From contig OZ316893.1 in NCBI GenBank assembly GCA_973895155.1, positions 7,464,963 through 7,528,962 on the forward strand: DNA of 64,000 nt. The letters are read 5' to 3'. The notes below the pieces were generated by a model. The model searched no databases, had not been told where the DNA came from, and saw only the letters and a program-made list of their open reading frames with translations. This DNA comes from Marsupella aquatica (taxonomy: Eukaryota; Plantae; Marchantiophyta). Below are positions 21,901 to 49,632 of the stretch, in pieces (the stretch's first letter is position 1; each line of letters starts with the position of its first letter). Made by a program: the position numbers and the translations under genes.

Positions 21901-22172
21901 AAAATCTCTTTCTTTGTGAAACAAGATGGAAGTCTGTACTCAACCGTGTCAGTACCATGAGACCCTCCATAGGGAAGATGCGGCATGGGTTCTCCGTTTT
22001 GGGTTAGAATGGACTCCAACAAAGCACGAGCGTGCAAGGTGCTTCCCCGTGTCTTGTGTGAACCCTTGTTTCCATGGAATCCAACCGTGCAACCTGCTTC
22101 ATATTGATTTTTGTAATCATAATACTTGGCAATGTTGAATCCATGCATTTTAATAAATGCACCCTTGCAAAC
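18950..22172 (-). mobile_element. Sola-like element, copy 2, truncated at its 5' side by MULE A
   Basis: End ATCAGTCTATTCATTAAAA plus TGTACATTTGG repeats (18990-19110); transposase breaks at VCKGAFIKMHG directly against the GGGTAT MULE end. Confidence 0.75.
19776..22172 (-). pseudogene. DUF7869/Sola-like DDD transposase, 5'-truncated, frameshifted near the C-terminus
   Basis: CTLC Zn motif, IIHDKMDQ, LQMDNSGKDNKN and FLMVGHTHEDVDALF in ORF 20139..22148; C-terminal fragments run to 19776. Confidence 0.75.
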
Positions 22173-25900: not shown

Positions 25901-27598
25901 CAGACTTACGCCAAGATGAACCAGATGGAGTCTGTCATCATTGCAGAGCTCGACAAGGAGCTAAGAGCAACCCGGGAGGAGAGGACTACCTTGAAACAAG
26001 AACGGGAGGAAGCCCAGAAGGAACTAGAGGAGGCACGCAAGGACCTGGATGAGACCCAGGAGGAGTTGGAGGAAATCACGAGGAAGATGGAGAACCTCCA
26101 GCGGCGGGCCGACAACCAAACGAAGCGGCTGAAGAAACAAGCCGCAGTATTTAAGTGCTTGTCTTCATCAGGCCCAACTCCAATTGGGGCAACCAAGTTA
26201 CCAGGAGTGGTACTGGCCGAAGAAAAAGCCGCGCCACCTGCACCAGTGCCGGAAGTAAGTGGGAAGGGGAAGGGACCAGCTGCCGAACCAGAAAAGAAGA
26301 AAAAGCGGAAACCTTCAGGGTCAAGGAGTAATCCGACTCCTCAAGCCGTGGTGACCAGGGAGGTAGAACCAGCACCATCCTCCGGCATGAATACGGCAAT
26401 AGATCCCGCTATCATCACAGGTGGGGGTGGTGCGGCCCAAGCCAAACTACTCAGTAATGAGGCCAGTATTCCAGATCCGCCTCTTGAGCAGGCCGGGGAG
26501 ACCATAGCCGAGGCTGAGGCCGTAACCGATTCCCGAGCCAATGCCGACGCCGATGGTGGACCCAGTCAGGCCGATGGAGAGTTGACTCAGTCAAGGGCAG
26601 GTAATCTGTCAGAGAATGAACCTACGGCAGTGGTTGAGGAGGAAGCGTTGGGGGCATCCATTAAGGATCCTCCACCGGTGTCGTGACGGCGCAAGGGCGC
26701 CGTTCCTTTTAGGGAGGGCGGACGTGGAGGGAGGAGGCGTGAGTGGGCAGGGCGGACGCTGATCTCCAAGTTTAGGATTAGGATCAGGACCAGGAGCGGC
26801 CCTGACACTTAGCTTAGTGGGATTGCGGTTCCACTGGTAGGAGCAACACTTGTGCTCTTGCCTTGCTGTACATAGGTAGATTCGGGCAAGTAGATTACTG
26901 TTAGGTAGATTAGGCTTACAATGCAAAGAATGGCGGATCCACTACCAGGATAAGTACCTGGGCAGCGGGGAGCTCAGGGCCTCTTCTTTAGCAAGTTTTT
27001 AGTTTGCACCAGCCGGGCTGGGATCAAGTAGTACGAGAAGCTCTCGGTTAGTCATACAGTGACCCTTGTGTATATTCATGTTTCCTCATGCCTAAGAGCT
27101 GAATAGAGTTGGCCTCACGGCTTAGTTCGCAGAGCTTGTGTATGAGATGTACTGTTTGTATGGCAAGTGCATGGTATGACTCAGTCAGAATGAGTCATTT
27201 TGCTATTTGTGTGTCGCATTAACTTGTGTGAAGAGTGCCCACATCAACCAAAAGGAAGGAAAGTAAGCAGGGGAGTGAGAGTTGGATGTGTCGAGCTGAG
27301 AGAGGTCTTAGCGGCTTAACCAAGCCTATTGGGGATCATTCCGGCGGCGGAATCCAAACATACCTAACAAGACGGAGGGGAAGACAGGGGAAGGCCTAGA
27401 TTAGGCCGGCTACGTATCTCATGACCCGATGAAGGACCTGTCCAGTATATGTGTGTAAAATGTTAACAGTAGTAGTAGAAGGTTAGCAGCGTCCCATGCC
27501 GCTAAGCCACGGAAACGGCCTCGCCAAGCTCGAAACCTGCGGGAATCGGCTTGAGCTGGGGGGTTTCTTGGGTTTAGGGAGCCATGGGACGCACCACA
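22942..27598 (+). mobile_element. 4657-bp solo LTR (family 2, Ty3/gypsy Tat-like) containing a long ORF
   Basis: TGTGATGC...GCACCACA termini; TSD GGCTG/GGTTG (one transition); flanks rejoin to restore the transposase C-terminus; full-length homology to 44856-49628, which is followed by a PBS. Confidence 0.9.
23057..26686 (+). pseudogene. LTR-internal ~1209-codon ORF: PMD-like domain plus long Smc-like coiled coil; two in-frame stops
   Basis: ORFs 23057, 23642 and 24530 share a frame; stops at 23600 and 24491 are TGG and CAG in the paralog; motif LLEFVGSWEPETNCTRIYGKDFYLTPKVIVEVFGLPIG. Confidence 0.8.
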
Positions 27599-30500
27599 GG
27601 TTGGCTACACAGGGTAGACTCCTCTACATGAAACTTGAAGACATTTATAAACACCCAATACAAATGTTTACAAGGCATATATGGCTTGCCGCGAGAATGA
27701 CGACGGAAGAAATCCTCATAGGAACAGGTTGGGAAGATGCAAATTTGGACAAAGTAAGTGTTCGGGGATCAAAGGTTCTCGTGGGTCCGGATTTTGAATT
27801 GCTTCCCAAATGCAATTCCAATACCCACATCCCACTCGCCATCCAGAGTCATAGCTTCTTTCCGAGCCGACTCCATTCGTGTACTGTGAGCCAAAGTTAG
27901 ATTTGATCAAGGTCTGGAGTTTCTCCCATTCCTGGTCCGAAGGCGTACGTTGGGGTCAGCAAAATTGATTCTTTCAAGAAATGCGTTTACATTAATTCTC
28001 AAGTCGAATGGAACAGGTGCATCTCGAGACGTCGCAGCTGTTTGGACCATCGAGACTCCCTGTGCTTGAAGGAACTCTACCTCGGCAGGTGACAAGTTGG
28101 TCCCTCTCACAACTGGCAAGATATCCGAAACAGGAGGAAGGCGTTCAACACCACGACGCGGATGGCTCTTGTAGCATGTTTTGTTTGCGCAGAACCATAT
28201 CATTTCTGCAATGGGTGTGCCTCTGAAAATTTGATGTCCGCTGACAACAATGCCGACAACACCTGTTGCCGAATGGAACCCGGATTTTTTTACACGATTT
28301 CGACACTCATCCCTCTCAGAATTTCCATGCAAAGTCCCATTGCACTGAGGCCCTGCCCCATATTTGGCCGTCCACCGCAAATGCCAGGTCCCTCTAGGAA
28401 CGTCCATTTCCAAAGGAGTTGACTCTGTCGGCAAATGTTGAAGAACAGCTGGAGCACTGAGTGGGGGTTGCGATGGTGTTGCTATTCCTCTGGCTTCAAG
28501 GATGTTTGCGAGGGAATCACTTCCATTCGTTGAAGTGTCGCTCCCGCCGAGGTCGACTATGGGATCTGTTACATTTTCGGGAAAGGAAGTGAAGGCAGTG
28601 TTGTTGAGATTCTTCCGTTTGAACCCTCGAGTATTTGGTGTAGTGATGAGAATGGTGTCATGCCGATGGGAGTCTTGTGGCGAGACAATCCCAGTTGCGA
28701 GTCCCTTCCTCTTAACTGACTTCATGACAATATCTCCATTCAGAGGAGAGCTCCTATCCAGATCCAAATCAGCAGCGTTGGAAAGAATCATGTTGGTTGC
28801 TTCTTCAAATAACTTGGGTGAACCAGATTGGTCTGCGGATAAATCTGCAGCACTAGTATAAACACACTGAGGTTTGACGAATAAAAGCATCAGGAAAACT
28901 TACCACACAAATGAAATTCCCCCATTGACGCCATCGAACAACCCACCAAGATATCCAACTCTACAACATCATCAGCTTTCCTGGGACACAATTTCCCGCT
29001 TGCCACCACAACACGATTTCCCTCGAAACTCGATACGCCGCAACAAACATTGGAGCATTCCGCAGTTTCTCCCATAGTTGCCGATGTTCTGGTTGCTTAC
29101 CCTCCAAAACTCCTTCTATAGAATGTCGATGGAAAGACTGGTAAAAGTGAAATGCATCAAAGCGTTCACGTTCAGGGTCTGGATGCCCTCCAAAAAAGAC
29201 ATTGCGAACGGCAATCCATCCAGCCTGAGCATTGTCAGCCATAAAACCTTGAATGACAACATCCTGTAACCCATTTTCCTTACAAACCTCAATCATAATT
29301 CTCCACGCTTTCTCAAAGGACTCCGTGTCTTCAGCTTTTAGTTTGCATGTGAAGATTGTACAAAGAGCTTGGAAGTTGTGATCATAAAGGTGTGCACTGA
29401 AAGTAAACCAGTCGGTTGTCACTCGCTTCATCACATCAAAACTCACCCAAGCTCCTTCCAATCTTCCGCCGGGTTGCATCTGCCGGAGAAGATCTACACC
29501 AGATCCATGACCCTTGACTGTCATTTTGAATATATGGGGCCTATCTGCTACACAACCCTGACCCGGCAGGAGGTACCTTTGGAGGAAAGAAATGTTATTT
29601 GACCTTTGCATCCAAGCTAGGAAATCTAACTCACCACGACCAGCCTGGTCCATACGAACGCTTCGACAAAGCGATGCAAATTTTTGGGGGGTAGACAGTA
29701 CCATGAGAGACTTCCAAATCTCCGTTTCTTCAATATCTACTATGTCTTCGATGTTTTCGCAAAGAGCTTTCACGAGCGATTCGGTTGCGGAATTCAAAAT
29801 ACCAGCCGGCTTTGCTAGAGGATTGGCTTCATGATTTCTTCTTATCAAATCCTCAGCTATCTTCTTAGCGCTCCTCGAGAAAACTTTCCTACTCTGATGG
29901 TTATGCTCACCTATATGAATTGCGAGCCGAGACATGTGACTATAGGTCTCTGTATCAAGGACTTGAGGGTACATATAAAACAAGCGAGCAGGGGCAAGAC
30001 TTCACACAGAAAGGAATCTGCTCACAATAGTGACAGACTACACCACCCTCTTCAATCAACGAACCCACCACGTGCTGGCCACTGAGTTTAGGAGCACCAT
30101 GCCAGGCCTTTGCATTGCATCTCTTCTTTTGTTGAAAGTACTCACAGGACTTGTTCCTGCACTCGATGAACCCGGTACACGTAACCTTACCAAATTCCCA
30201 ATGTTTCTTTGGATGCAGGCTCGCAGTTGTCGGAAAATTTGGGTCCAAATGTAACAATCTTTGGCACGGTCCATGTCACGAAGTCTAGATCCCTTGGAGA
30301 GCGTTCCCTCAATGGGAGGAAGTTCAAATACAACATTTCCGTTGTACTTGTCTGGCAAACAAGGAACTTGCTCATGCCGAAAATCCCCTGCCGAGATAAA
30401 TCTTGACAGTTCACTATGTCCCGTGGCCTTGAGTAAGGCGTCCATCGCACTCCTTCGATAGACTTTATGACCAACTCGGGAGGTAGCCACCGGCTCATCC

Positions 30501-31689
30501 TTAACAAAAGCGGGAACCGGAACATTGTACTGCGATGGAGGAGTGGGTGCAACATCACCATCTTCACTGTCAGATATGTCAACAACAACAACAGGAATGT
30601 TCCCAACTACTGGTTCCGGAGCAAGACGTCTGACATTAAGCGTGTAACTAAGCCCGACATTCATATGCCAAAAGCGTACTCCCTCATCTACATCGAATGC
30701 CGCAGCCCGTTGAAGTTCTCTTTGGGAAGGATTTTTGAGGGTTTAATAAGGAGCCTCCTAGGATTCCGCTATGTCAGTTGGTGCACATGGAGGTCGTCCG
30801 CACTTTGCAGAAAGATAGCTCCTCCATTGACAAGTTGAAAGACTCTTTTCATAGTATGGGATACAATTCGTCGATAGGAATTGAGGTTTTATGTTCAGCC
30901 GACGGACGCTGAGGGTGTGACGCTCACTTGCACACAGGAAATTCGTGATAGTTGGGATCCAATATGGATATCCGAAAACAAAAAGTTCGAGGAAGAGTGT
31001 GCGGCAGACCCCGATTTTCTCATTCTGAAGGATAAGATGTTCTCAGTTTTTGACGGGAACCATCGGTTTGTACTCCTGGACGCTTGTCACGGGTATAGCG
31101 ACGGAGACAGCAAACAGGCAAACAGGAAATACTTTTCCTGTTTGCCTTATGCTGTTACCAGGAAAAAACATCTTGTACCAGGGGAAAGAACACACAATCA
31201 GCAGTTTAGAATTGTTGAAGTTGGAGTTAGTCCATTGCGGTGAGGGAGGATACCTTGTAATGAATTGCTGAACCACATAATAATTGAACCCTAAATCCCA
31301 ACACAAACAAGGGGGAGCATACATAAAAATGTCAAGGAATGCGCACAAAATGGTAGGTCCCACCACAATCGGCAACAAAATATATGAAAATAATACAAAA
31401 TCAACGCAGCCCTAAACTTTATGTCATTATGTGGTCCAAAATAAAAGCGAACAACGGATTGACTAGCGCCTGGCGCTATCTTATTGTTATTCAAGGAAAC
31501 AAATAGTTGGCGTTGAGAACATAAATCACAACACAATGACATTTAATGGTGTAGCCTAGACGAAAAATTTACCAGCGCCTGGCGCTAACAAAACATGATG
31601 CGACATCAATAACACTATACCGTTGACATACGACAAAATCAATATAACCGTTTGGACCAATAATACAACCTACATCATCATGATTCATG

Positions 31690-34600
31690 CTATAAACGAT
31701 GAGCATTTTGCCTCTCTAATATGAGCCGAACCTCTCCAACAGTGAGAATTGGTTGGCTGGTCAATGTAGATTCCTCAACGTCTAGTTTGAAAACGGTAAG
31801 GAAAATCCAATACAAATGTTTGCAAGGCATATATGGATGTTTCCGGGAATGTCGCCGGTAGAAATCCTCACACGAGCAAGTGGGGAAAATGCAAATTTGA
31901 ACAAAGTAACAATTTGGCGTCCACATATTTTCGTGCGTTTGCACCTTAAACTGTTTTCCCCATGCATTCCCAATCGCAACATCCCACTCTCCCTGAATGG
32001 ACATCGTCTCTTTTTTTGCAGACGCAATTCTGTTCATGTGACCCTGGGTAAGATTTGACCGAGGAACCGTATTCCTCCCATTCCGGCTTCGGAGACGAAC
32101 ATTGGGTTCGAGAAGATTCACATGTTCTGGAAAGATATTGACATTGATTCGAAGATCAAAATCTGACGGGGGTCTAGTTGTAAGTTCATTTCCGCGCACT
32201 AGGGAGATTCCGTTGTCAAGAAGATATTGCAGCTCGTCCTCCGAAACATTTGTCCCTTTCAAAACGGGAAGAACATCAGGGAAAGGGGGAAAATTCAAGA
32301 CACCTCGACGCGGGCGACTTCTGTAACATGTATTGTTTGGGCAAAACCAAATCATTTCGGTTATGGGTTCCCCCCTGAAAATCTGTTGACCTTTGACAAC
32401 AATACCGATAACACCATGTGGTGAGGGAAATCCAACTTTTTTCACGCGATTGCGACACTCATCTCTTTCAGAATTACGGGAAAATGATCCGTTGCACTGA
32501 GGACCAGCGCCAAATTTTGAAGTTCGACGTAATTGCCATGCAGCTAGAGCAACCTCCGTCTCATGGACAGGACACTCTTGTAACGGTTGCTGAAGCACGG
32601 AGGGAGCAGTCTGGGGAAGCCTCGTTGAACGCGTTCGGTCTCGAGCAGGAGGGGTATTGAAATCGACATCTTCTCCAGCGCCCGAAATGTCACTTCCAGA
32701 CAGATTAACAACAGGATCAACTTGAGGCGTGGGGCCAGGGATAGCATCAAACGCCATGCGATTAAGATTCTTCCTTTTCATCGATCTAGTATTGGGCGAG
32801 GTGACAAGGATTTTATCATGCCTATGGGAGTCTTGTGGCGAGATATTCCCAGATGCATGTCCTTTCCTCTTCAAAGACTTGGTGACAACGTCTCCATTGA
32901 GAGGTGCACGTCTCTCCAAGTCAAACTCGGCAGCGTTGGACAGTAGCATATTCATTGCGTCTTCATACAACTTGGGGGAGCCTGCTTGGTCCGCTGATCG
33001 GAAAGCGAGTTCCCAAATTGTGGGACCTCTTCCTCTATGCAACCCTTTCCGATACGTAGTGTAAGCAGCAACCTGAGAAATAGCTCGATTTTGGTCCATT
33101 TCACATGCCTCAAAGAGCCCAACCTTTTTCTTCATTACCCATGCTTTCATACCTGCGTGCACGGACTCTGATCCTGTACAATTAGGAATCTTAGCCCCTT
33201 CTTGGACACTCTTGTTCTGCAATCACATAGAATAAAGTGTCTATTACAGAACAAGAAAACACTAGCGTCGGGCGTTAGTGAAGTGGACTCTCTCCTTAGA
33301 AGTCAAAACTGGCGCTGTACATTAAGGGACAATTTATTTTGTCCTATTGTGTCATATGACAGTTTGAATAAATGATAGCGCCAGGCGCTAGTATTAAAGG
33401 ATGCTATGGTATTGTAATATTTGAATATGGATACAAACATTTTGAAATGAGAATATAGCACTACAATACCTAAAGAGCGGAAAGCAAAGTAAACTAACTT
33501 ACCAAACGAATAAAATTTCCCCATTGTCTCCACCTGACGACCCACCATGAAATCCAACTCTGGAGCATCCGGAGCTTCCCGGGGACACAGTTACCCGACT
33601 GCCACCACAAATCAATCTCCCTTGAAATTCTGTAAGCCTCTACAAACGTGGGGGCATTTCGCATCTTATCCCAAAGCCTACGATGCTCTGCTTGACTATC
33701 TTCAATCACTCCTTCAATCGAATGGCGATGGAAGGCTTGGTAGAAATGGAATGCATCAGTTCGCTCACGCTCAGGGTTTGGATGCCCTCCAAAAAAGACA
33801 TTTCGGACTGCAAGCCAACCAGCTTGAGCATTGTCCGCCATGAATCCATGAATAATCGGATTTTCTAATCCATTCTCTTTGGACACCTCAATCATTAGTC
33901 TCCAAGCCTTCTCGAACGACTCTGTATCCTCTGCTTTTAGTTCGCAGGTGAACAAGGTACACAGAGCGCGATAGTTGTGATCATAAATATGCGCACTAAA
34001 AGTAACCCAGTCTTTTGTAAGCTATTTCATCACATCAAAACTTATCCAAGCACCTTCGAGACTTCCACCAGGTTGCATTTGTCTCAAAAGATCAACGCCT
34101 GATCCATGGCCGATCGAAGTCATCTTGAAAATGTGAGGACGGTCTTCTTGAGATCCTTGACCTGGTAGGAGGTACCTTTGGAGGAAAGGCATGTTGATAT
34201 TTCTTTGATACCGAACAAGAAAATCTAGTTCACCTCGACCTTTCTGGTCCTGTCTAACACTACGAAAGAGGGACGCAAACTTTTGGGGTGTGGAAACTAC
34301 CATGAGAGACTCAAATATCTCTGTTTCTTCAATATCTTGAATATCTTCCATACTTTCACACAAGGACTTTACAAAAGACCCTGTCGCCACATTTTTTACA
34401 CCAGCAGGGGTGAAAATTGGATTTCCTTCCAATTTCTTTTTGATAACCTCCTCAACAATCTTCTCTGCGCTCCGAGAAAACACCTTTCTTGAAGGATGGT
34501 TGTGGATCCCCATATGAATTGCCAAGCGGGACATGTGAGTACAGGTGTCTGAGTCAACTAGAACCTGGGGGTACATGTAAAATAACCTTGCTGGACAGGA

Positions 34601-35554
34601 TTGGACACAAAACGGAACTTGATCACAAAATTGGCAAACAACTCCACCTTCGTCAATGAAGGAGCCAACACGATGTTGCCCGCCAAGTTTGGGGGTTCCA
34701 CCCCAGGCCTTCTGGTTCCTCCTTTTCTTCCGCTGAAAATAGTCGCAAGTATTATTCCTACACTCAATGGAACCAGTGCACGTTACTTTACCAAATTCCC
34801 AATATTTCTTGGGATGAACATTAGCTGATGTAGGAAATATTCTGGTCCAGATGTAGCAATCCTTTGACCGGTCCATGTCGCGTAGACGTGACCCCTTCGA
34901 AAGAGCTGCCGTCGTAGGAGGCAACTCGAATACAATATTTCCATTGTATTTCTTTGGCAAACAGTCGACTTGTTCATGGCAGAAGTCCCCAGCCGCAATG
35001 AACCTCGAGATTTCACTGGAACCAGTTGACTTGAGAATGGTATCCATTGCACTTCTCCAATACACAATGGAATTTTTGGTAAAAACTGCTGTAATCTCCT
35101 GTTTAACAACGGTGTGAGCGGATTTAGCACTATGCTCAGGCAAAGCAGGTCCATCATCGTCGCTATCTGAAAGCAGGACAACATCAACAAAGGGTTTGGA
35201 TGAAGATGGGAGATCGGATTCGACTGGTTTTCGAATGACAATAGAATACCGAATTCCTGCATTCAGGTGCCAAAAACGAATCCCGTCATCAACATCAAAA
35301 GAAGCAGTGGAATTAGATGCTTCATCTCCATTTCCCTCCTCCAAAATGTCCTCAATGTCGTTCAAATCCAAACCAAAGCGCCCACAGAGATAATTCTCAC
35401 TAACTTGCTTGTATACGACATTGGCCGACAATGGAATGGATACAAGGTCACAGGTAGACAGACGCGTCAGAACGATTGACCTCGACATTTTAAGATCATC
35501 CAACCCAAAAACACTCAGTTCACGATAATGAATGACGTCTTCGAATGTACACAA
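31690..35554 (-). pseudogene. MULE transposase B (GCM/WRKY-like Zn domain, DDE, SWIM zinc finger), one intron (~33217-33502), premature stop at 34022
   Basis: SFDVMK / FMADNAQAG / DAFH / ESVH; SWIM CSCEDF...PCKHLYW; GTAAG...TTGCAG intron ends. Confidence 0.88.
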
Positions 35555-36436
35555 TGGTATTCATAGTGAATAATCCGTTTGTCAGAGCCGTTATAATACG
35601 ACAGAAACACTACCGGTCGAAAGCACATCTGACACAATAAATGTTTTTTGTCGTTATGTCAACGACATTTACACTAATGAGCCTAAGATGTCCGTTTCCA
35701 AAGAGCATAATCATGATAATTAAATCATGTTAATTGAGTAGCGCCCGACGCTACTCAAACATCCTACCTTCAACATGGACCCAAAATGGTGAAATATGGC
35801 GCTACTCAAACACACACCATAAATTATGGTATAAAAGTGGAATGTTTTATCCGGGGTTTCAGAATAAATACTAAATGTTTGTAGCTAATTTTTTAATATT
35901 ATCTAAAATATTACCAAAATGTGCCCATTTAATATTAGCGTCGGGCGCTAATCCAAAACGGTAATCATGACATTCATTTATGGAAAAATATTCAAAAATT
36001 GTATTCATTTGGCTTTTTATTGTATACTTGAGGGTGAATGTTGACCTAACTTTGGGAAATTTTATGGTTTAAATTGTGATGATTTTGAGTAGCGCCTGGC
36101 GCTACTATTGACCAATATCAGATTTGAACTAGGAATATATATTAAATTCAACGAACTGTTCTTTAACGGTCATATTCAACGGTAACGTTAGGTCGCGTAA
36201 CGTCGAAGATATGCCAACGGTATTCGGACAACTAATCCAGAATTGACAAGTGGCGCTCAAGAGATAGATATCAAAGTAGCAAGGGGATAGTTTAGAGATG
36301 ATACTCCCCCCCCCCCTCCCTTGTCCGCTGTATTTAGGTTCCGTTTCGGAGGTTCTTCGTGCAAGAATTCTCTAGAAGAAGTACGGTACGAATGAGGTAC
36401 TCATCACGATCGTGAAGCACTTCGTGTCTGAGAAAC

Positions 36437-39400
36437 ATGGACCTTCTCCCCACTACCTCGCATGGGTATAGTGCTGTTGGGCAGGGAGAGTAGATCCATT
36501 CGCAGACATCTGAGTGCTCGTTTTCTGGATCTGTTTACAGTCGTCGAGTGACACGGTCTACAGCATCCCAAGCTCCCAAAACAGTCTCTGTAGTCACATT
36601 TCCGAAGAGCAGGAGAGCGAAGATGGATGATCTCGACACATATGCTGTGGAAGATCGAGGAGAAATGTCGCTGACGATGTCCGACATTATCTCCAAGCAT
36701 GTTATGGTGTTTGGCAAAGATTTTCGAGGGCACGACAAAGACCCCCCAAGGATTCCAATGTGCCGCTTGGTTCACATGGAAGTTGTCTGCACCTTACAGA
36801 AGGGAAGTCCTTCAATTGAAAAGTTGAAGGACTCTTTTCGTAGCACAGGATACAACTCAAAAATCGGAATGTTGTTCTATGTCCAGCCGACAGATTCAAA
36901 TGGGAATGTCCAGACGTGTACTCCAGAAATTCGAGCTTCCTGGGACCCGATGTGGGTGGCCGAGAACGAGAAGTTTGAAGCTGAATGTGCGGCCGATCCA
37001 GACTTCATGGTGTTACAAGATAAGATGTTTTACGTTTTTGATGGTAACCATCAACTTTACGCATGTCGATCGTTACGAAAGAAAATCCGGAAGATATCAA
37101 GTATCACCCGCGTGTGCAATGTACTATCTTCAAGGGTGAAAAGGGATCTTTGATTGAGATTGAGGCGGCTATGCATACTGTGAACCAGTAAGTCTCTCGT
37201 TGAGTTTCACTTATCCTTACCTTTTATAGTGTAGTTTTTACTAGCGCCTGGCGCTATTGACTGACAAATTCTTCTGTAGACTTGGACAGGCCGTGGTGGA
37301 ACCTTCCTGGATACTTGATGCAGACCGAATTAAGAGGATTTTGTCCAACGATCTAGAATACTACAAATCAATCATCGATGGGGCAAACTTCAAGAAGTTT
37401 GGGCAGGTGATGCAGAAGACTCAAAAAGGATCGTGGTATTCCAAGAAAATGCCTCAAGAAGCACTTCTGTATATCTTATGCGAGAATAAGATTAAATCCT
37501 ATTCTCGACAATTCAAGATGGACATGGAGTCGGCCACCGCTCAGGGAAATCCTTGGTCTCAGGAAGAGACATCCAAACGACATGCGGTCATGATGAAAGA
37601 AGCAACGAAGGATTGGGCGATCAAGGTCTCAAAGATCACTCCCTTGTTGAGTCCAGAGTTTGAAGACTTCATGACAACCTGTGCTGAGATGTATCCGATG
37701 ATCGAGATGAACAAACGCGAGAAGAAACCGGATGCGGTTGTCTGTACCATGGATCGTGCCAGGTTATTTACAGCAGTCTCCGCACTCGACCCCAAATTGA
37801 GGAGCACTTTGTTAGTAGCGCATTGCACGCCAGAGCTCAGGAAGCAATTCTTTCATCCACAAAGTGTTAGTGATGACCCTGTGAAGCAGTGGTGCCACAC
37901 TTGGCAAACTTGGAATAGCGTGGAGGGAATTGCTATTGGTATGCTGCAGACTGCCCTCCAGCAAATCAGTGAAATAATTCCTTCCAATCGATTGGAGGAA
38001 TGGAAGTGTGAGTCTTATGATTCACTCGTTGAAATAGTGTGCAATGATTTCAAAAAATTTGGGGATGCAGTGAAAGGTAAGTTTTTCAATACGATGTGGA
38101 TGTCCAAGTACCCGGACAAGGAAGACTACACACTCAAGAATCAAAAGCGAGCGAAACGATATGTCTATCGTTTCTTCATGCACATGGAGATTGTGAAGCC
38201 TGATTTTTTTTGGGCTTACCCAGCTGCTTTCCAGAATTGGGTCATCTGCGCAGATGGAGATATTTTGGCCGAACTGTATTCGATGTATCCGGCTGAGGGT
38301 ATACTTCCACCGAGGAAATTGTCAGAGTGGGAGAGAATTCACTGCCCTTGGTATCTTGACACCGACAGATGGGATTCTCCTTTTGACGACACTGAGAAGG
38401 ATCCTTTCCATAAACTGTCTAAATCCCAAGTTCCGAGACAATTTGTCTCCGACATGAAGCAAGGAATTGAGGGGGACGTCAACTCGTCGACGACTGAGTT
38501 GCAAAAAAAATGCGAAACCACAGTGGTTCATGTTGATCGAAGCCGAAAACCAAGAGCCAAAGCCAAGGCGGATGCCCGTGTGGCAAGTGCTAGTGCCAAG
38601 TCTGGGAAAAAATGTAAGCTACACCTCCTTTTTCCGACTTCCTTCTTTGTTAGCGCCTAGCGCTATCATGTGTCGTGAGTTTAATGTGTCATATTTCCCA
38701 AAATTAATGTGGTGTGTTTGGTCAGTGCCTGGCGCTAACACTCTTTCTGTGCTTGACACCATTTTGGGTAGGTGGTCGAAAATCTGATGCCGCCACGGAT
38801 GACACAAAAGTCGATGCAACACCAGAAGTCTCTAAGGCCAACACTGGTGCCAATCCAGACCCCATCACCCCTGTTGAGAAGGGGCAGGTTATAGTTCCTG
38901 TGGATGCTACAAGGACAAAAAAGAAGAAGAAAAGGACCGTCGATGTCTGGGAATCTTCTCGAGATAATGCTTCTGGGGCCGGTATCCAACGGGATGTGGG
39001 GACTTTCAAGACCAAACTCGGAAGACATTGTATGGTTGAATCAAGCTTGGCAGAATTTATTGATAGTGCATTTAGTAAGGAAGAGAAGCCAGATTGGGTC
39101 TCAGACGCTGAGAAGTGGGGTAAGGATTTGATCAAATCGGGGTGTAGAGATAAAGGAATCATTCGAGGTGGGAAGGAACGATCATTTGGGGTGAATGCGG
39201 GTTTCATCTATCTCCCAACTGGTTTGAAACCCACAATTGTTGACCGTCGGGTCCCGAAATGGAATGTCACAGATCACACAGCAGCCGAATCATTCTGTCG
39301 GACGATGGACCCTTTCCTTTCCAATGACGGAATGCTCGCTATCTTATACTCGGATGACCACGATCAGATTTCCCAGGTCATTTCTGCATGTCAGCAATCC

Positions 39401-40164
39401 AAGAAGTTCATGTGCATCAATACGCACAACGTTTTCATGTCTGTCCCAATGTACAGATCCAAGACAGATGTCCAGGTAAATATTCTCTCTCAGTATAGCT
39501 ATACTAGCGCCCGGCGCTACTCTTTATTTCTTAGGAGGTCTTCTCTCATGAGAAAAAGATTTTTGAAATCCAGTTGGTTCATCAACTTTTGCAGGTCTTC
39601 ACTCTTCGACTGGACATATTTTGTCGAGTTTCTTTTAAAGGAAAGGTCCCAAAGGATCCAAGATTCAAGCCATTATCTAGCGCTGAAGATCCTTCAATCT
39701 CGAACCTTATTGGGCTACAATCTTTGAAGGAAGATCATTGTCCTGAACTCCATTTTACTGGGAATTCCCGACTGCCGGTTGGTTTTATGCAAACTGTCCT
39801 TGAACTCTTTACAATACCTAAGGATATTGTAATTGATTGGACCGTCGGCTCAGGTAGTACGTTCATTGCTGGGGATTACTCGGGCCGTTTTGTCATCGGG
39901 TTAGAAAATCATCGGGAGTTTGTTGAGACCGCTTCGAGGATTTTTTTGGACCTCATTTCTCCAAAACCTTTGGAGACACAACCTCCCCCTCCTCAAATAA
40001 CCGGACGAAAAAAGAAAGATAGACTTAGATCTATCCTCAACTTTGATTCGGACGAAGATGATGGGACGCCAGAAGATGATGTTCCTGAGGATGTCAATGA
40101 CGGCGGGAAAGAGGAAACCCGACATGATGGGTCAACGGAGGACAGCGAAGAGTCTTCCGAGTAA
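36437..40164 (+). pseudogene. ParB/Srx-like + helical region + beta-class N6A/N4C DNA-methyltransferase-like fusion gene, copy B (4 exons: ~36437-37187, 37280-38612, 38772-39475, 39595-40164)
   Basis: RIPMCRL...SIEKLKDSFRSTGY...VFDGNHQL; GFIYLPTG...FLSNDGMLAIL; RLPVGFMQTVLELFTIPKDIVIDWTVGSGSTFIAGDYSGRFVIGLE; GT-AG introns at the same places in A and C; stop near 36491 and frameshift near 37066. Confidence 0.8.
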
Positions 40165-40279
40165 TTTTCGTCTCTCGTAAGCTCCTTCATCCTTTCAATT
40201 GTTGGCTAATCTTCAATTCCGCCAGTTCTATCGGTTAAGTACTTACTTCCTCTTTCTCTTCTGCTTCTCTTTTGAGCAG

Positions 40280-40589
40280 GTCAGAATGGAACCAAAGAAA
40301 ATGGTTTCAACTCTGGAGGAAAGTGGCTCAAAATGTAATCATCACTCCCGAGAAGCCATTTGTATTGCCATCATACGCTGAGAACGTCGCGAGGAAGGTA
40401 GAGAAATTTAGAACTCTCTGCTGGGAAACAAAAGGACTTAGGCTTCTTAGGGGAGTAGACAGGAAGTTCATGAGGAACCCCTACGTAGATGATGTTTCTA
40501 GAAGCAAGTATATTGATGATGAGGCAGAGTCGACCGACAGATCTCATAGCTCCCAGAATGAGAGCTCAGAATCTGACTTTGAAGGGTAG
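40280..40589 (+). CDS. Third small MULE ORF/exon (~100 aa, basic then acidic), unknown function
   Basis: SEWN...TPEKPFVLPSYAEN...RTLCWExKGLRL...NPYVDDVxRSKYxDDEA conserved with copy C (~51890-52188, minus); preceded by a CAG acceptor. Confidence 0.6.
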
Positions 40590-43500
40590 CAATTTTCTCC
40601 TCTCTCAGGTCAAACTTCCTCCCAATTGTACGAGTATGCCCTTGGTTTTTGTTAGCGCCGGGCGCTATTGAATTTATTAAAAATGAATTGAGTTTTAGGG
40701 ATGTTGCCCCTTCCTTTCAATGGTTAATGTGGTCTTGAGTACCGTCCTTTGTGTGGGTTCCTCGGCTTGGTTAATTGGCGCCCGCCGATACCCAAAAAAC
40801 ACGTCGGAAGCTTCCGTTTGTTATTTGTCGTTTCCGCCCTAGTGTCATTTGGCTTTCACTCGAAGACTGGTACCGACAAGAGGACCTGTAACGATAAATC
40901 CAAGCCCCTTATTGACATACTATTGTTTCTTTCAAAGTCCATTTCTCTCATTTTTCTCCTTCTCGGTTCCATGGAAGGCCAGTTTATCGACGGCCCACGA
41001 GAGCATATGTCAACTTCCGATTAGATGGTTTCCACCAAGATCCAGATTGTCAGAACTCTGGGATTGATGATGAATGTCACTCTTCGAGATAGGACATTGT
41101 ACGAGGAGGCACCCACCGGGAGTGTTAGCGCCTGGCGCTAGTTACAATTGTTCTGGAAACTTTAGTGTTCCTAAGTAGAAATATTTGTACACCGAGGACA
41201 ATATGTTTCACTTAAATAAAAAATCTCGGGTTTTTTTTCTTTCAATTTCCCTTTAGAAGTTATGACTCAGATACCTTGGTTAAGTCCTACTTCTGTGCTT
41301 TGATATTGAACTTAGACTATTATTAATGTTTGGTTCTACTTGGATCTCAGCCTGAACATCAATCCTAGGTTCTCGTGATTTTTTGCACAAAGAATTGGAA
41401 GCGGCTGGCTCTAATATTCGGCATGTTTGGGCGATTAATGTGTCAATATTTTGGGTTTGAACGCCCGGCGCTAGTATTCGGCATGATGCGTTTGTGATTA
41501 TTTTTCCTGTGGACTCCCGGCGCTAATATTCGGCATCGCATAATTATCAGTATTTTAGGAACTGATTTTTTTAATTTTGCCACAATACCAGGAGAAATGT
41601 GCTCCCAAAATAGGAAATTTTGCTGTTACCAGTTCCTGTTATATTTTGCTGTTTGCTGTTTACTGCCTTTTGTAAACACCTCCTTGTCACTAAGGAGAAT
41701 CTAGAAAACATGAAATACCACCCGCGAGTGCTCTGTACTGTCTTCAATGGGGACAAGGGTTCACTGATTGAAATTGAAGTGACGATGCACACCGTGAACC
41801 AGTAAGTTTGTCTTTTTAGCATATCTTGGAGAGGAATTGTTTTACAAGCGCCCAACGCTGCTTAAATGTTTTTCAAATTGCTTTCTTTTCCTTCAGGCTT
41901 GGACAAGCCATGGTCGAACCGTCATGGATCCTTGACGCAGATTGAATCAAGAGGATTTTGATTCACGACCTGGAGTACTATAGTAAGCTCATCGACCCTA
42001 CGAATTATAAGAAGTTTGAGCTGATCAGGCTAAAGATGCGGAAAGGATCCTGGTACACGAAGAAGATGCCTCAAGAGGCTCTTGTCTATATTCTATGTGA
42101 GAATAAGATTAAATCATATTCTAACCAGTTCAAGCTTGACATGGAGTCCGCTGCGGCCTAGGTACCCCTTGGTCGGCCGAGGAGGTTTCCACAAGGCATG
42201 CCGTAATGATGAAGGAGGCCACCAAGGAGTGGGCAATGAAAACATCAAAAATCACTCCTTTGTTGAGTCCAGAATTTGAGGACTTTCTGTCTACGTGCGC
42301 AGAAATGTATGCTGTGATGGAGAGAAATAAGTGAGAGAAGAAACCAGATACCGTCTTGTGTACGATGGACCGAGCCAGGCCTTTTACTGCTGTTTCCGCA
42401 CTCGACCCCAAGCTCAGGAGTACTTTGCTTGTCGCCCATTGCAATCCTGAGCTCCGAAGGCAATTCTTCCATCCGAACAGAGTCAATGATGATCCAATAA
42501 AACAGTGGTGTCACACCTGAATAACGTGGAACAATGTAGAGGGGATTGCAGTGGGGATGTTACAGTGTGCTTTGAGAGAGATCCAACAAATTATTCCCAA
42601 GAATCGCCTGCAAGCCTGGGCATGTGAATGTTTTGAAGCTCTCATTGATATAGTTACTAATGATTTCAAGAGATACGAAGACTCGGTGAAGAGTAAGTTT
42701 TTTAATACAATGTGGCCTTCGAAGTATCCGGACAAAGAGGACTACTCTTTGAAGAACCAGAAGCGAGCAAAAAGGTACCTCTACCAATTTTACATCCACA
42801 TGGAAGTAACTAGACCTAATTACTTCTGGGCATATCCCGCCGCTTTTCAGAAGTGGACAGTAATATCAGAAGGTGACAATTTATGTGATTTGTACTCTAT
42901 GTACCCCACGGAGGGAATTTTCCCAGCAAGACCTTTAAGTGAATGGGAGAGAACCCACTGTCCATGGTACCTAGATATAGACAGATGGGACTCGCCCTTT
43001 GATCACCGAGAAAAGGATGCTTTCCACAAGCTCTCTAAGTTGTAGATACCAGTCAATATTGTTTCTGACATGAAGCAGGGACTAGCGGACAATGTAGATA
43101 AGTCCACAACAGAATTGCAAATGAACTGTGAGACCACAGTTGTTCACGTTGACCAAAGCCGGAAGCCTCGCGCGAAAGGGAAAGCTGATACTGTTGTCCC
43201 AAGTGAATCAACAAGGTCCGGGAAAAAACGTAAGTATAATTTGCAGTTCTTTGGTTAGCGCCTGGCGCTGCTATGCCATTCAATATATGTTAGATTGCAT
43301 TTGTCTCATTTGTTCCAGAAATATATATATTTCCTTCCATCTCTTCAAGAAAGTTTGGCCAGCGCCGGGCGTTAGTATACTTTGCATTTTCCATACGCTC
43401 AAATGTAACATCGCCTTCCATTGGATCAGGGAGAAAGACAAACGCCATCGGCAATGGCGATACAAAGATAGATGCCACCCCAGAGGCATCTGAAGCCAAT

Positions 43501-44964
43501 ACAGGGCCTCCATTTGACCCACTTACACCCGTCGAGAAAGGGAAGTCAATTGCTCCAGTAGATGCGGTCAGTACTAGAAAGAAGCGAAAAAGGGCAATTG
43601 AAGGTGGATCCTCCTCCGCTCGGGAAAGTGCGGTTGCAACGAGTGTTCAACGTGAAGTTGGTGACTTCAAAAACACTCTTTCAAGGCATTGCATGGTTGA
43701 GTCTAGCATCTCAAAATTCTATGACACAACGTTCAACAAAGAGGAGAAGCCTGACTGGGTAAATGGTGTAGAGAAATGGGCAAAGGAACTCATGAAGTCG
43801 GGATATCGAGACAAGGGAATTGTCCATGGGGGGAAGGAAAGATCCTTTGGAGTACACGCGGGATTCATTTACCTTCCTACGGGTCTGAACCATCGCTGCT
43901 AGATAGAAAAGTCCCAAAATGGAATACCCCTGACCACACACTGGCAACATCATTCTTTCGTGGAATGGACCCATTTTTATCAAATGACGGAATGCTAGCA
44001 GTTTTGCATAATGGGGAGTACGATCCTATGTCTCAGGTTATATCCACATGTTAGGAATCGAAGAAGTTTCATTGCATCTCCACACACAATGTTGTTATGT
44101 CAGTTCCTATGTACGTGCCGAAGACTGACCGACAGGTAAATTCCAAGTCATGATCTCTATTTTTTACACTCAAAAATGTGTATGAATGCAAGGAATGACA
44201 TATCATTCTTGGTTTATCTCGCAGATATTCACGCTCAGGCTAGACGTCTTTTGCCGAGTATCTCAGAAAGGGAAAGTACCCAAGGACTCGAGGTTTAGAC
44301 CTCTGTTTGTTACAGAAGATCCCTCCATCACTAATTTAATTGGGCTTCCAACTCTCAATATAGATCCAACACCTGAGATGGAATTCGCAGGGAATGCCCG
44401 TTTGTCGGTTGGATTCATGCAGTTTGTGATAGAGCTCATCATTCGGCCTCAGGATATTTTCATAGATTGGACAGTTGGTTCGGGTAGCTCTTTTGTAGCT
44501 GGAGACTATTCTGGGAGGTTTGTTATTGGACTGGAGAATTGGAAGGATTTTGTTGAAACTGGTTCCAAGGCGTTCTTAAATCTACTCTCTTCTAAGGAAG
44601 TAGAAACCTTGCCTCCCCCAATTCAACCACCGGAAAAGAAAAAGAGGGACAAGCTCCGGTCTGTACTTAATTTTGACTCCGATGATGAGTCAAGTGGGGG
44701 GACAGCAGATGAAGTGGACGGGGAGACAACTCAAGGGGAGTAAGGAGCAATCTGCTGGCGAGAGTGACAGCGATGACTCTTTCGAGTAATGTTCTGAAAC
44801 TCGTAAGCTTCTTTCTCTTTTCCAGCTCCTTCATGCATTTTGTGCTATTGATTATTGTGATGCCTAACCAGGAATCACTAGGCCGGTTAAGTGGGAAAAC
44901 GGAAGTGTACCCTAGAAACACCTTAGTATAGTTACAAGAATGAGGAAAATATATACAATTAAGG

Positions 44965-47900
44965 ATGACTATGGAACCCGGGCCGAGGCCGGAAGTAAGG
45001 ACGCCGGGGGAGAGAATACAATTAGGGTTAGGGCGCACTAAGTGTCGACGGCTAGGGATAACCAACGATAGGGAAGACCAGAGGAGGAGAGGGGTAAGGA
45101 CGGCTCACGAGGAATGGTGGCTCATTTGCAAGCACGAACTGGGCAGACGACTATGGGAGGCCAACTACTGTCAGCTGCTTAGACAAGCACTCTGGGCGGG
45201 AGCAGATACCAACGAATAACTCAAGGAGGGTATGAGCAACGTCAATCAAGCGGCACATTTTTGGGGATGCATGTTCGAACGGGCAATTGAGTACATTGGG
45301 ACTTATGAGGACGAAGAATCGGAGAGAGCAGCTCGAGAACAGCAGGAGCTCGCTCGACTATGGGAGTTGCTGAAATCTGCCTTCTTAGGAGGAGAATTCA
45401 TCAAGGTCGAGTTCTTGTGGACTCCTACTGCCAATCAGCTTGATGACCTTCTGTTTTGCGAAAACAGGATCGTCGGTATTTGGGAAGCCATCAACCGCTG
45501 CAACGACATACACTGGGAGTTGAAGGGTAGCATGGAGGGGTGGACAAAGGCAACCATGCTAGGAGAAACATCCATGGCAGCCGAGATGAAGAGAAAAGGA
45601 AACAACAACGAAGAGGCCACCCCAGCAAAAAGAACAAGGTCGGCAGCACCAAGGAAGCTAGCAGAGCAGGGAAGCAGGAGGCAGGCGGAAGCTGACAAGG
45701 AGGAGGTCAATCCCATCAATGCCATTCCAACAAAGGATGACACCTGGAAAGGCTGGGCGGCGACCCTACCAGAAGAAGTGCAACTGCATTTTGCACGGGA
45801 GGAGGATGCATGCTTTACCCATGCAGACCAAGAAGTACCAGGGCTTCATAGCCGGATCCAGCTTGGAAGCCTTCGTAAAATTACCATGGCTGAAGCCGGA
45901 GGTGCCGGATTCAGACTTATTAGAATCTGTGGGATCATGGGAGCCCAAGACCAATTCCACAAGGGTGTATGGGAAGGATTTCTATCTCACTCCCCGGGTG
46001 ATTGCCGAAGTGTTTGGCTTGCCGATGGGCAATAAGACCAAAGTAGATACCAGGAAGACCTTGCCAGACAAGGAGTTCCGGTTGTTTCCAGGGCCATCAA
46101 CAAAGAATGGCTTCTTTTGAAACACCTGCACCAACCCACACATAGGAGAAATGATCGATTTCTTGCGGGTGACCATGCATTGTAACTTGCCGAGGGCAGA
46201 GATCGGCAAGACATAGGTCTATCTGGCGGAGAGGCCAGACCCAAGCCGAGACTACAACGGGTACCTCCTCACCCAACTAAAGAAGATCTTGAAGGAGGAA
46301 CAGCTGGTGATCGGCATGGGAAGCGTGTCCCGGCTTGGCTATCACATGCCGCTATTGTGCCGGTATGCCAGAAGTCAGATCTTTGCCCCAGTACTTCCCC
46401 TACAGGCGAGGGCACCAGAGGAAGTCCCGAAGCAGAGGCCGGCAATAGAGGAGCCCAACCAGCCCGCCAGTCCTACGATCAAGTAGATGTTTTGGCCAAG
46501 AAAAGAAGACTTGCCGATGCAGCAATCAGGCATGCAGAATCTGCTGAAATTGCTGGAAAAGGAGAAGAGAACGGCAACGGCACCGGCACCGGTACAGGAC
46601 ACTGCCCCAGAGGTTGGCCTAAGCCGACTCAGGAGGGAAAACCCCTTTACCGGAGCCAAGGTGAGAAGGAGGCCAGAACACGAGCCGGGAGTTCGAATGT
46701 ATGTGGGAGCCTCTAGCCCCGAATCGGAGGCAGAGCAGCCTAAGGCTCCTGCCCGCGGAAAGCAGAGGGAGAAGACAGCCTGGAAGCCAGAGGAGGAACC
46801 AGGGCCCATGATCTGTGAGGCCATTTTTACGGCGGGACCAGGAGAATAGAGGGGGAAGCCGGGAGTCCAAGCAGTGGAGGAGGCGGTGGAGGACTACAAC
46901 AATGATAACTCTGGCTATGGGTCGGATCATCATGTACCAGGAGTAAGAACCTGTGGCCGCTTTATCCCCATGCTTCCAAGAGTAGTTCGAGGGGATCCCA
47001 CCCAACAGAGCAGCCCCGAGTCCCCCCCACCAGATGTCGCTCCCCCGAGATTTGATGGCATAAAGCAGACGGCACAAGAGTTTCAGGAGCGACTCAGAGA
47101 GGAAGAGAAGGCAGCCCTGGCTAGGGAGAAAGATTTACCAGGAGGAGATTGGTCGGAGGACATCAGGCGGCTTGCCGAAAAAAGAAGCAACCCTCTTGCC
47201 ACCATAGAAGAAATCCGCAGGGCGGCTTGGGAACAGAGGCCGAGGTGGTTGATGCCGATGACTTCTACTTACTCCACCTATGCTAAAGATAGAGCCATGG
47301 AGTATGGGGAGATGTGTGGGGAACTTGCGCTCAGCATCTTTGGGGAGGAGTTGGAGCAGGGACCCTTTTTCCAGAGGGAGATATTGGAGAAGCACCAATT
47401 AGAAGAAGCGGTGGCTTTGGAGAGAAGCAAGAAGGACAAGGTCATCCGGCGGCTTAGGGAGATGGAAGCCGAGGTGGAAGACCTAAAGGCAGCCAAGAAA
47501 GCCCAAGATGAGCTACGGATTAAACGGCATGAGTTAAACATCATGCAGGGGTAGTTGGATACCGTGCAGTCTGATAATCAGATTATCAAGGATAAACTGA
47601 CTCAGACCCAAGGAGAGTTGGCCGAGGCGGTCAAAGATAGGGAGAAGTGGAAGCAAGAGCTGAGAGACGCAGAGGAGGCCCACATAGCAGCCAACAAGCG
47701 GGCCATGACGGAGACTCAGAGAAGGGAGAGGGTGTTGAAGGGGGAACTCAAGGATATCCGTGCAGCCCTAGAGCAGAAGGAGGCCAAGTTAGGGAAATCC
47801 TATCAGGCGATTATTGTGCTGCGGTAGGAGCTCGCATCCATGATGGCCAGCTTCAAGGCCAACCTCCGCAAGAAAGATGACCAGCTCGACCAGACTTATG

Positions 47901-48709
47901 CCAAGATGAATAAAATGGAGTATGAGGTCGTTACAGAGCTCGACAAGGAGCTGAGAGCAACCCAGGAGGAGAGGGCTACCTTAAAGAAAGAGTTGGAGAA
48001 AGCCCATAAAGAGTTGGAGGAAGCCCAGAAAGAGTTGGAAGAAGCCCAGAAGGAGCTGAAGGAGGCAAGGAAGGACCTGGATGAATTGCAGGAGGAGTTG
48101 GAGGAAAGCACACGGAAGATGGAGAACTTACAGCGGCGGGCCGACAACCAAACGGAGCGGCTAAAGAAACAGGCCGCAGTATTTAAGTGCTTAGCTTCAT
48201 CTGTTCCAACTCCAATTGTGGGAACCCCATTACCAGGAGTGGTACTGGCAGAAGGACAAGCCAAGACACACGCCCTGGTGCCGGAGGTAAGTGGCAAAGG
48301 GAAGGGACCAGCTGCCGAAATAGGGAAGAAGAAGAAGCGGAAACCTTCTGGGTCTGGGAGTTATACGGCTCCTCCAGCCGTTGTGACCAAGGAGGTAAAC
48401 CCGGCACCAACCTCCGGCATGGTCACGACAATGGATCCACCTGTCAAGGAAGGTGGGGATGGCAAGGCCGAGGCCGGGACAACTATTGATGAAGCTGTGG
48501 TAGCAAACCCACCACTAGAGCTAGCCGAGGAAACCATAGCCGGGGAGGCTGTGGCCGATACTGATGCCAAAGCCGAGGGTGGACCCAGTCAGGCCGATGA
48601 AGAGTTGACTTGGTCTGAGGCAGGTAATCTGTCAGAGGAAGGACCGACGGCAGTGACTACGGGGGAAGCGTTGGGGGCGTCCATTGAGGATCCACCATTG
48701 GTGTCGTGA
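44965..48709 (+). pseudogene. LTR-internal PMD-like/coiled-coil ORF, more decayed paralog of 23057-26686
   Basis: Colinear fragments 44965, 45232, 45719, 46289, 46487, 46874, 47555 and 47840; multiple TAG/TAA/TGA stops and one frameshift. Confidence 0.8.
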
Positions 48710-49632
48710 CGGTGCAAGGGCGTCGTTCCTTTTAGAACGGCGGACGTGGAGGTAGGAGGCGTGAGTGGGCAGGGCGGGCTCGGATCTCCAAGTTTAGGTT
48801 GAGGATCAAGACCAGGAGACGGCCCTGACACTTAGATTAGTGGGATTGCGGATCCACTAGTAGGAGCAACACTTGTGCTCCTGCCTCGATGTACATATGT
48901 AGATTACAGTTAGGTATATTACAGGTAGGATAGATTAAGCTTACGCTGCTATGAATTGGCGGATCCACTTCCAGGATAAGTACCTGGGCAGCGAGGAGTC
49001 CAGGGCCTTTTTTTTAGCAAGTTTTTAGTTGCACCAGCAGGGCTGGGATCAAGTAGTAAGAGAAGCTCTCGGTTAGTTATACAGTGACCCTTGTGTATAT
49101 TCATGTTTCCTCATGCCTAAGAGCTTAATAGAGTTGGCCTCACGGCTTAGTTCGCAGAACTTGTGTATGAGATGTACTGTTTGTATGGCAAGTGCATGGT
49201 ATAACTCAGTCAGAAGGAGTCATTTTGCTATTTGTGTGTCGCATTAACTTGTGTGAAGAGTGCCCACATCAACTAATAGATGAAGGGAAGTAAGCAAGGG
49301 AGTGAGAGTTGGATGTGTCGAGCTGAGAGAGGTCTTAGCGGCTTAACCAAGCCAATTGGGGATCATTCCGGTGGCGGAATCCAAATACACCTAAAGAAAA
49401 GGAGGGGAATACAAGGGAAGGCCTAGATTAGGCCGGCTACGTATCTCATGACCCGATGAAGGATCTATCTAGTATATGTGTGTAAAATGTTAATAGTAGT
49501 AGTAGAAGGAAGTTAGCAGCATCCCATGCCGCTAAGCCGCGGAAACGGCCTAGCCGAGGACAAAACCTGCGGGAATCGGCCTGCGCAAGGGGGTTTCTTG
49601 GGTTTGGGGAGCCATGGGACGCACCACATTTT

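Follow-up and report, generated by a model that had tools for sequence, protein, structure and literature searches.

A predicted pseudo-methyltransferase and a non-coding palindrome in a Mutator-like transposon of the liverwort Marsupella aquatica

A Mutator-like element (MULE) of 10,592 bp in the liverwort Marsupella aquatica carries an accessory gene whose predicted product contains a beta-class DNA amino-methyltransferase domain that has very likely become inactive, and the non-coding DNA of the same element is dotted with a 15-bp palindrome. The element (31091-41682) lies in the window, the whole stretch of 64,000 nucleotides analyzed here (assembly GCA_973895155.1, contig OZ316893.1, positions 7,464,963 to 7,528,962 of the forward strand), to which all positions refer. 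We assign a probability of about 0.48 to the reading that the dead methyltransferase is kept as part of an accessory protein that binds the palindromes of its own element and thereby protects it from silencing. By analogy with known systems, a role as a self-recognizing anti-silencing factor appears most likely, with shielding from host methylation as the best guess.

A degenerate motif pair maintained in three copies

A first-pass annotation of the window had reported the peptides GFIYLPTGL and DWTVGSGS in three diverged gene copies, and both were located in all three. Copy 1, which belongs to the above element, has the degenerate motif IV GFIYLPTGL at 39200-39226, where YLPT corresponds to D[PILV]PY by profile alignment, and motif I, DWTVGSGS, at 39835-39858, both on the plus strand. 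The corresponding sites are 43861-43887 and a start at 44465 in copy 2 (plus strand), and 53218-53192 and a start at 52613 in copy 3 (minus strand). In copy 1 the two peptides are in different frames, with a GT-AG intron (39476-39594) between them; the predicted junction KTDVQ/VFTLRL agrees with the contiguous VDVQVQILSL of gene models of the liverwort Calypogeia fissa, which are themselves predictions.

The earlier argument that the identity of the motif speaks against random decay is borne out by the pattern of substitutions. When copy 1 is compared with copies 2 and 3, the proportion of synonymous differences (pS) is 0.83-0.94 and that of nonsynonymous differences (pN) 0.15-0.20, and in either comparison seven of the nine GFIYLPTGL codons carry synonymous differences. 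Because synonymous sites are thus saturated, the identity of the motif goes beyond chance or recent duplication. For copies 2 and 3 compared with each other, the ratio of nonsynonymous to synonymous substitution (dN/dS) is 0.08 over 70 codons and 0.16 over 132; the accessory gene is under purifying selection. Variation at the motif was read from 41 contigs of four public runs placed on 39160-39260. Nine variant rows fall inside the motif, six of them synonymous; the three replacements, each in one contig per run, restore neither D/N/S nor an aromatic residue, and one loose contig end reads LPM at the motif. On this evidence GFIYLPTGL is being maintained, although it decays now and then.

Were the domain simply a formerly active methylase in neutral decay, the stops or frameshifts that interrupt all three window copies would be accounted for. 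This explanation is nevertheless extremely improbable, given that the same non-catalytic pattern is seen across clusters of less than 50% identity, that dN/dS is far below 1 and that the damage is recent and copy-specific.

Homology, register and fold of the methylase domain

Exon 4 of copy 1 matches the Pfam family N6_N4_Mtase (E 1e-8) and, among PDB sequences, beta-class methyltransferases (best match 5hek, E 3.7e-6), whereas the exon-3 profile found no match among PDB sequences beyond two chance rows at E about 0.9. When the exon-3 half was searched with HMMER against 1.84 billion representatives, 38 clusters were returned. Five of the 20 clusters that were looked up are NCBI proteins of C. 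fissa, and a sixth protein of this species came from another search; among these 21 entries it is the sole named source. As a reference set, 14 annotated phage methylases were chosen from the search matches and aligned together. The family profiles aligned with phage beta-class amino-methyltransferases at hhalign probabilities of 97.7 and 97.9 over 206 and 202 columns, and four hhalign runs concurred in placing x-L-P-T/N on D-x-P-Y, which supports the earlier assignment of YLPT to motif IV. The family profile was required for this result, as exon 3 of the window, used by itself as a profile, did not align with the phage methyltransferase profile. No canonical catalytic motif was found elsewhere in the gene, the pattern [DNS][PLIV]P[YFW] being absent from every exon of copy 1.

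Structural predictions were made for one relative, P0009, in the form of two AlphaFold models. In both, the catalytic half (residues 121-270) has predicted local distance difference test (pLDDT) values of 73-94. For the second model, Foldseek ranks CcrM first (6pbd_A, E 1.5e-4, root-mean-square deviation 4.6, 129 columns); the first model gave no Foldseek match and reached a Z of only 4.2-4.3 to beta-class methyltransferases. In VIA, the model is colinear with the N-termini of M.MboIIA and M.BceJIV (Z 6.2), which amounts to modest structural support for a beta-class fold. Among Atlas neighbors, N6_N4_Mtase clusters score 0.93-0.94. On these alignments, the domain is classified as a homologue of bacterial and phage-type beta-class DNA amino-methyltransferases.

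With the known enzymes of this class (PF01555; CcrM, M1.MboII, M1.HpyAVI, M.BceJIV and the phage enzymes of the type D[LP]PYG...WDxxIP) the domain shares the fold, about 205 colinear columns and the characteristic order, motif IV standing before motif I within a class I methyltransferase fold. Further likenesses are motif I (DxTxGSG), G[IL]E and the WDxx[IL]P that follows motif IV. In contrast to these enzymes, the window domain has the catalytic Asp and Tyr replaced, has lost the HPTQKP, WxK and HE features, carries an insertion of about 35 amino acids before motif IV and is embedded in an intron-containing eukaryotic protein of about 1,150 amino acids.

Loss of the catalytic residues

Residues were tallied over 40 rows, made up of 38 proteins from databases and 2 of the window copies; 38 of these rows reach across the motif, and the 61-amino-acid P0015 and three exon-4 rows were left out. 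At slot 1, the position of the catalytic Asp, these 38 rows have Tyr (12), Ala (11), Phe (8), Cys (3), Ser (2), Arg (1) and Thr (1). Slot 2 is Leu in 33 and slot 3 Pro in 36. At slot 4, the Tyr position, Thr (27) and Asn (6) predominate, Ser, Leu, Cys, His and Lys occur once each, and Tyr, Phe or Trp is not found in any row. Consequently, [DNS]-x-P-[YFW] occurs in 0 of 38, and a survey of these homologs for an intact DPPY or SPPY yields none. By comparison, the phage references read DPPY (5), DIPY (4), DLPY (4) and DVPY (1), with D and Y in 14 of 14, and three of them have a motif I of the form D[FL]TMGSGS (DFTMGSGS or DLTMGSGS). The slot-2 Leu and the odd-looking motif I are thus inherited rather than new, because both occur in ordinary phage enzymes. 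The previous description of motif IV as rewritten therefore holds for the catalytic Asp and Tyr, which are replaced, but not for the Leu. Likewise, the constancy of YLPT is true of its own subfamily, whereas slot 1 is variable in the wider family; judged from the alignment, YLPT is the subfamily form of xLP[TN].

Because both catalytic residues of motif IV are lacking, the domain is very likely inactive, and we consider it highly probable that it carries out no methyl transfer. In the rotifer N4CMT, changing SPPY to APPA abolishes activity, Ser and Tyr both being required (PMC8885841), and in CcrM the slot-1 residue forms a hydrogen bond with the target amine (PMC10406627).

Changes extend beyond motif IV. 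The HPTQKP loop before motif I, in which H, K and P are invariant in the 14 phage references, reads GxxR[LM][SP]V in six family rows, and the WxK and HE of the references are also gone. The first-pass suggestion of a base-flipping module is weakened by the combined loss of this loop, of WxK and HE and of the base-stacking aromatic residue. Its other proposal, a pseudo-enzyme kept by selection, is well supported by the purifying selection and by the family-wide loss of Asp and Tyr, and the alignments portray a pseudo-enzyme whose target-base pocket appears to have been dismantled.

What has been retained leaves room for two further explanations. All seven rows that cover the region keep motif I, DW[TS]xG[SE]G, and the acidic residue of G[LV]E (motif II). 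The claim that the S-adenosylmethionine (SAM) loop is kept is accurate to this extent, but the Asp of the N-terminal GD (motif III) is apparently lost: in two candidate columns, placed by eye outside the hhalign coverage, D occurs in 0 and 1 of 24 rows, with mostly Ser instead. SAM binding by the pseudo-methyltransferase is thus graded as uncertain. A sensor of SAM or S-adenosylhomocysteine that couples the activity of the element to the methylation capacity of the cell would make use of the kept motifs; it is judged improbable, as the kept residues are also structural, motif I is covered by no more than these seven rows and the GD Asp seems to be replaced. Only slightly less improbable is an active enzyme of altered chemistry or with a non-canonical motif, in which the conserved Thr/Asn or nearby residues act on another acceptor. 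The family does conserve LP[TN][GN]LRP, VPxWNxWD and an invariant His (24 of 24), along with motif I and the motif II Glu. However, one would expect a changed reaction to have settled on a particular new residue at slot 1, and as the amine-activating slot spans seven residue types in the 38 rows with no conserved replacement, altered chemistry is poorly supported; furthermore, the stacking aromatic is missing in all 38 and the target-binding loop is lost.

A palindrome confined to non-coding DNA of the family

The palindrome mentioned in the first-pass annotation is real: AGCGCC-N-GGCGCT is present at 33 sites with at most two mismatches, as compared with 0-5 in five Markov simulations. Every one of the 33 lies inside a family copy, and the remaining 38.9 kb of the window is free of them. 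Element 1, i.e. copy 1, contains 15 sites of the form (T/C)AGCGCC-N-GGCGCT(A), which start at 31465, 31574, 33264, 33377, 35740, 35937, 36091, 37243, 38652, 38724, 39506, 40654, 41127, 41400 and 41460 and span 31465-41472. They fall in introns, in the intergenic spacer or at the ends, so that 15 of 15 are non-coding, although non-coding DNA makes up 33% of the element (p 6e-8). The ratio CpG/GpC is about 1.0 in element 1 as compared with 0.5-0.7 in five of seven non-family regions, which lends slight support to a protection from methylation.

Two further observations were discounted. Of the 26 palindrome mismatches, 23 are C>T or G>A; this bias was dropped as evidence of methylation, since in a motif of nearly all C/G it is the plain transition class. 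A set of 118 metagenome loci with the palindrome proved to be chance matches, with one site in each of the 80 listed and none of the 118 encoding the family.

The transposon and its accessory gene

The first-pass annotation made no mention of the Mutator-like transposon or of the confinement of the palindrome to its non-coding DNA. The boundaries of element 1 are defined by an 8-bp target-site duplication, CTTGTCAC, at 31083-31090 (left) and 41683-41690 (right), and by an empty-site joint, contigs of three of four runs connecting 31068 to 41683. The element is nested in exon 1 of an older copy, whose interrupted reading frame resumes past the duplication. Contigs by the thousands, 85-100% identical, tile element 1 in three runs, consistent with a multi-copy family. 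Its ends start GGGTAT and GAGGTG/GGGGTA; they are degenerate, with short similarity only and no long terminal inverted repeat (TIR). Target-site duplications of MULEs are about 9 bp long, and 8 bp were found for element 1 and 9 bp for a non-autonomous derivative of about 330 bp. This derivative (55969-56300; duplication GATCCAATA) has the same two ends, contains one perfect and one degenerate palindrome and interrupts copy 3 of the accessory gene.

Element 1 encodes, head-to-head with the accessory gene, a putative MULE-type transposase (31690-35554, minus strand) with the candidate motifs SFDV, MADN and DAFH, a C-terminal SWIM-like CxC...CKH (CSC...CKH), one intron and a stop at about 34022. 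It matches no Pfam or NCBIfam family; the layout of its motifs fits the MULE architecture as described in PMC1702500. A second transposase copy (27592-30706) is 54-80% identical, with a dN/dS of about 0.03 on one segment. In this older copy the transposase and accessory genes abut at 30706-30715, an internal deletion having removed the whole promoter spacer with its palindromes.

The accessory gene was predicted to comprise five exons, encoding about 1,150 amino acids, all on the plus strand in copy 1. Exon 1 (36623-37187), with a frameshift near 37064, encodes a possible ParB/Srx-like domain with the motif DGNH(R/Q); no Pfam, PDB or phage match was found for this region. Exon 2 (37280-38613) corresponds to a 444-amino-acid region that is 72-75% identical to copies 2 and 3 and found no Pfam, NCBIfam, usable Atlas or long-protein match. 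Word-based searches of longer proteins with exons 2 and 3 also returned nothing, which is weak evidence. Exon 3 (38772-39475) encodes a linker and the N-terminal half of the methyltransferase fold, and exon 4 (39595-40160) its C-terminal half, with the motif X region, motifs I and II and an acidic tail; N6_N4_Mtase was the only family recovered in Pfam scans of the exons. Exon 5 (40280-40589) encodes a conserved C-terminal segment, PEKPFVLPSYAE...LxWE...YIDDEAE, with no family match; a similar segment, compared by eye, follows the methyltransferase domain in the Calypogeia protein P0042. This segment could be a host-protein interaction motif. Copy 2 (41691-44855, continuing at 30715-31082, plus strand) is decayed: the pieces counted contain five stops, and the frame shifts directly behind LPTGL. 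Copy 3 (49940-57400, minus strand) has two stops in exon 2; its element end is at about 49940, where the boundary is seen, and the right boundary is approximate.

The palindromes cluster near both of the degenerate ends, and the 330-bp derivative has retained them. The dead methyltransferase might accordingly be part of a transposition cofactor, the accessory protein or the transposase binding the palindromes to condense the element, to pair its poorly matched ends or to choose targets, for which MURB of MuDR offers a resemblance; a DNA clamp or bridge would be in keeping with a ParB-like motif. However, the promoter spacer and most of the internal introns contain palindromes as well, at places like those targeted by VANC, where end pairing would not need them. 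We consider such a cofactor unlikely, although it is the most probable of the alternatives.

A possible role in anti-silencing

The change in the motif alone is an ordinary pseudo-enzyme signature, and the interest is in the surrounding element. To our knowledge, sequence-specific transposon anti-silencing has been characterized mainly for the VANDAL/VANC system of Arabidopsis. VANC binds short motifs in non-coding regions of VANDAL elements, MULEs with degenerate TIRs, and causes a family-specific loss of methylation (PMC10398659). The Marsupella element resembles this system in having an accessory gene in a Mutator-like element, degenerate ends, an element-specific short motif in non-coding DNA and hints of motifs that differ between subfamilies. 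An anti-silencing role is proposed because this anatomy parallels VANDAL/VANC, though built from different parts. The accessory protein would recognize the palindromes TAGCGCCNGGCGCTA of its own element, probably as a dimer, since the site is two-fold symmetric and beta-class methyltransferases are dimeric. The palindrome might be read via the ParB-like or exon-2 region, with the dead methyltransferase fold serving as a dimerization or non-catalytic DNA-binding scaffold, and the promoter spacer and introns would thereby be kept free of repressive methylation.

Several observations weigh against this proposal. Every step beyond inactivity is inferred, and the transposase could bind the palindrome instead. 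The anti-silencing role is argued by analogy; Pfam scans of the exons found no domain in common with VANC, whose motifs moreover form tandem arrays (PMC10398659), whereas the palindrome described here is dispersed. With HPTQKP, WxK and HE eroded, the dead domain may have no contact with DNA, and for the ParB-like region the DG.H[RQ] motif of the three copies is accompanied by a single weak profile match (TIGR03187 DGQHR, E 0.027, on a copy-3 piece). Ser occupies the catalytic slot 1 in two family rows, in both cases together with Thr in slot 4. The C-terminal half of P0009 has pLDDT values below 50 in both models, and VIA ranks Trm14 (Z 8.8) and some unrelated folds above the beta-class methyltransferases (Z 4.2-6.2). 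As to the palindromes, the outer family spans were drawn partly with them in view. The two remaining non-family regions reach 0.84-0.9 in CpG/GpC (0.80/0.89, 0.72/0.86), family copies 0 and 2 reach about 0.8, and the youth of the insertion could explain the excess in element 1. Finally, all three window copies are damaged, the lesions being recent and differing between copies.

Two indirect hints, both read from protein sequence only, suggest that distant relatives carry such palindromes as well. P0017 reads SARRY just past the end of exon 3, like the window's intron 3, and P0024 has NDVVS three times outside the exon, in read-through intron sequence. An 18-nt CG-rich palindrome is able to encode TNDVVS; in a control, a palindrome of at least 16 nt was possible for 4 of 150 random hexapeptides. 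This suggests a different CG-rich palindrome in the distant subfamily of P0024. A broader scenario is that an as yet undescribed, old and diverse MULE family of seed-free plants turned a captured phage-type methylase into a non-catalytic reader, a ParB-like/pseudo-methylase protein that, much as ParB does on parS, loads on subfamily-specific CG-rich palindromes in the promoter spacer and introns and protects the element against host methylation; it is put forward tentatively and is rather doubtful as a whole. If true, sequence-specific anti-silencing would have arisen here independently and convergently from prokaryotic parts.

METTL14 partners METTL3, and in a comparable way the dead domain might act as a partner or decoy that dimerizes with an active host beta-class enzyme, such as DN4MT1, or with another chromatin enzyme, inhibiting or redirecting it. 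Beta-class methyltransferases act as dimers (PMC10406627), a liverwort beta-type N4-cytosine methylase with TSPPY has been described (bioRxiv 2021.02.12.428880), and the catalytic half of the domain folds with high confidence and keeps conserved residues. Against this, the N4-methylcytosine (4mC) deposited by DN4MT1 is mostly genic (bioRxiv 2021.02.12.428880), and the palindrome is left unexplained; the idea is regarded as rather improbable. MpDN4MT1 of Marchantia and N4CMT of bdelloid rotifers resemble the window domain in being amino-methyltransferases of bacterial type that eukaryotes acquired, in one case a liverwort, but they are active host enzymes with SPPY, whereas the window domain is transposon-borne and lacks SPPY/TSPPY.

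C5 methyltransferases occur in retrotransposons. The inactive N6-adenine methyltransferase domain of the DIRS1 retrotransposon is another degenerate amino-methyltransferase kept by a eukaryotic transposon; it is derived from PCIF1 (group 2) and belongs to a retrotransposon polyprotein (PMC4738411), in contrast to the beta-class, phage-like domain described here, which is encoded by a separate gene of a DNA transposon. No published MULE that combines a beta-class pseudo-methylase with an intronic palindrome as its cognate site was found in mostly open papers, with supplements, Repbase and Dfam outside the scope of the search.

The accessory protein and its palindrome may thus represent a second, independent anti-silencing candidate, of which protein and 15-bp site are both defined and which is directly testable in Marchantia. 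It would also be a case of a eukaryotic DNA transposon long retaining a prokaryotic DNA methylase as a pseudo-enzyme, within the same plant group that domesticated an active bacterial-type 4mC methylase. Should the protein-palindrome pair indeed remove methylation, it would offer a compact tool for targeted epigenetic control.

Other features of the window

Two GC-rich repeats of 4.7 kb (22942-27598 and 44856-49628), 83-85% identical and with TG...CA ends, are inserted in family copies. They encode long coiled-coil open reading frames (ORFs) with weak QLQ matches and no recognized pol domain, and the ORF at 14648-16429 is a 25% relative of these. Two DUF7869 ORFs, at 20142-22214 and 10828-12192 (both minus strand), presumably represent another type of DNA transposase; the former has an observed/expected CpG ratio of 0.38, the lowest measured in the window. 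Repeats of about 90 bp with the inverted motif TGGGATAC...GTATCCCA are located near the DUF7869 elements, at 17975-18504 and 13422-13511, and are possibly cis repeats of those elements. At 60014-61573, a unit of about 576 bp is repeated three times in tandem, the units being 68-81% alike.

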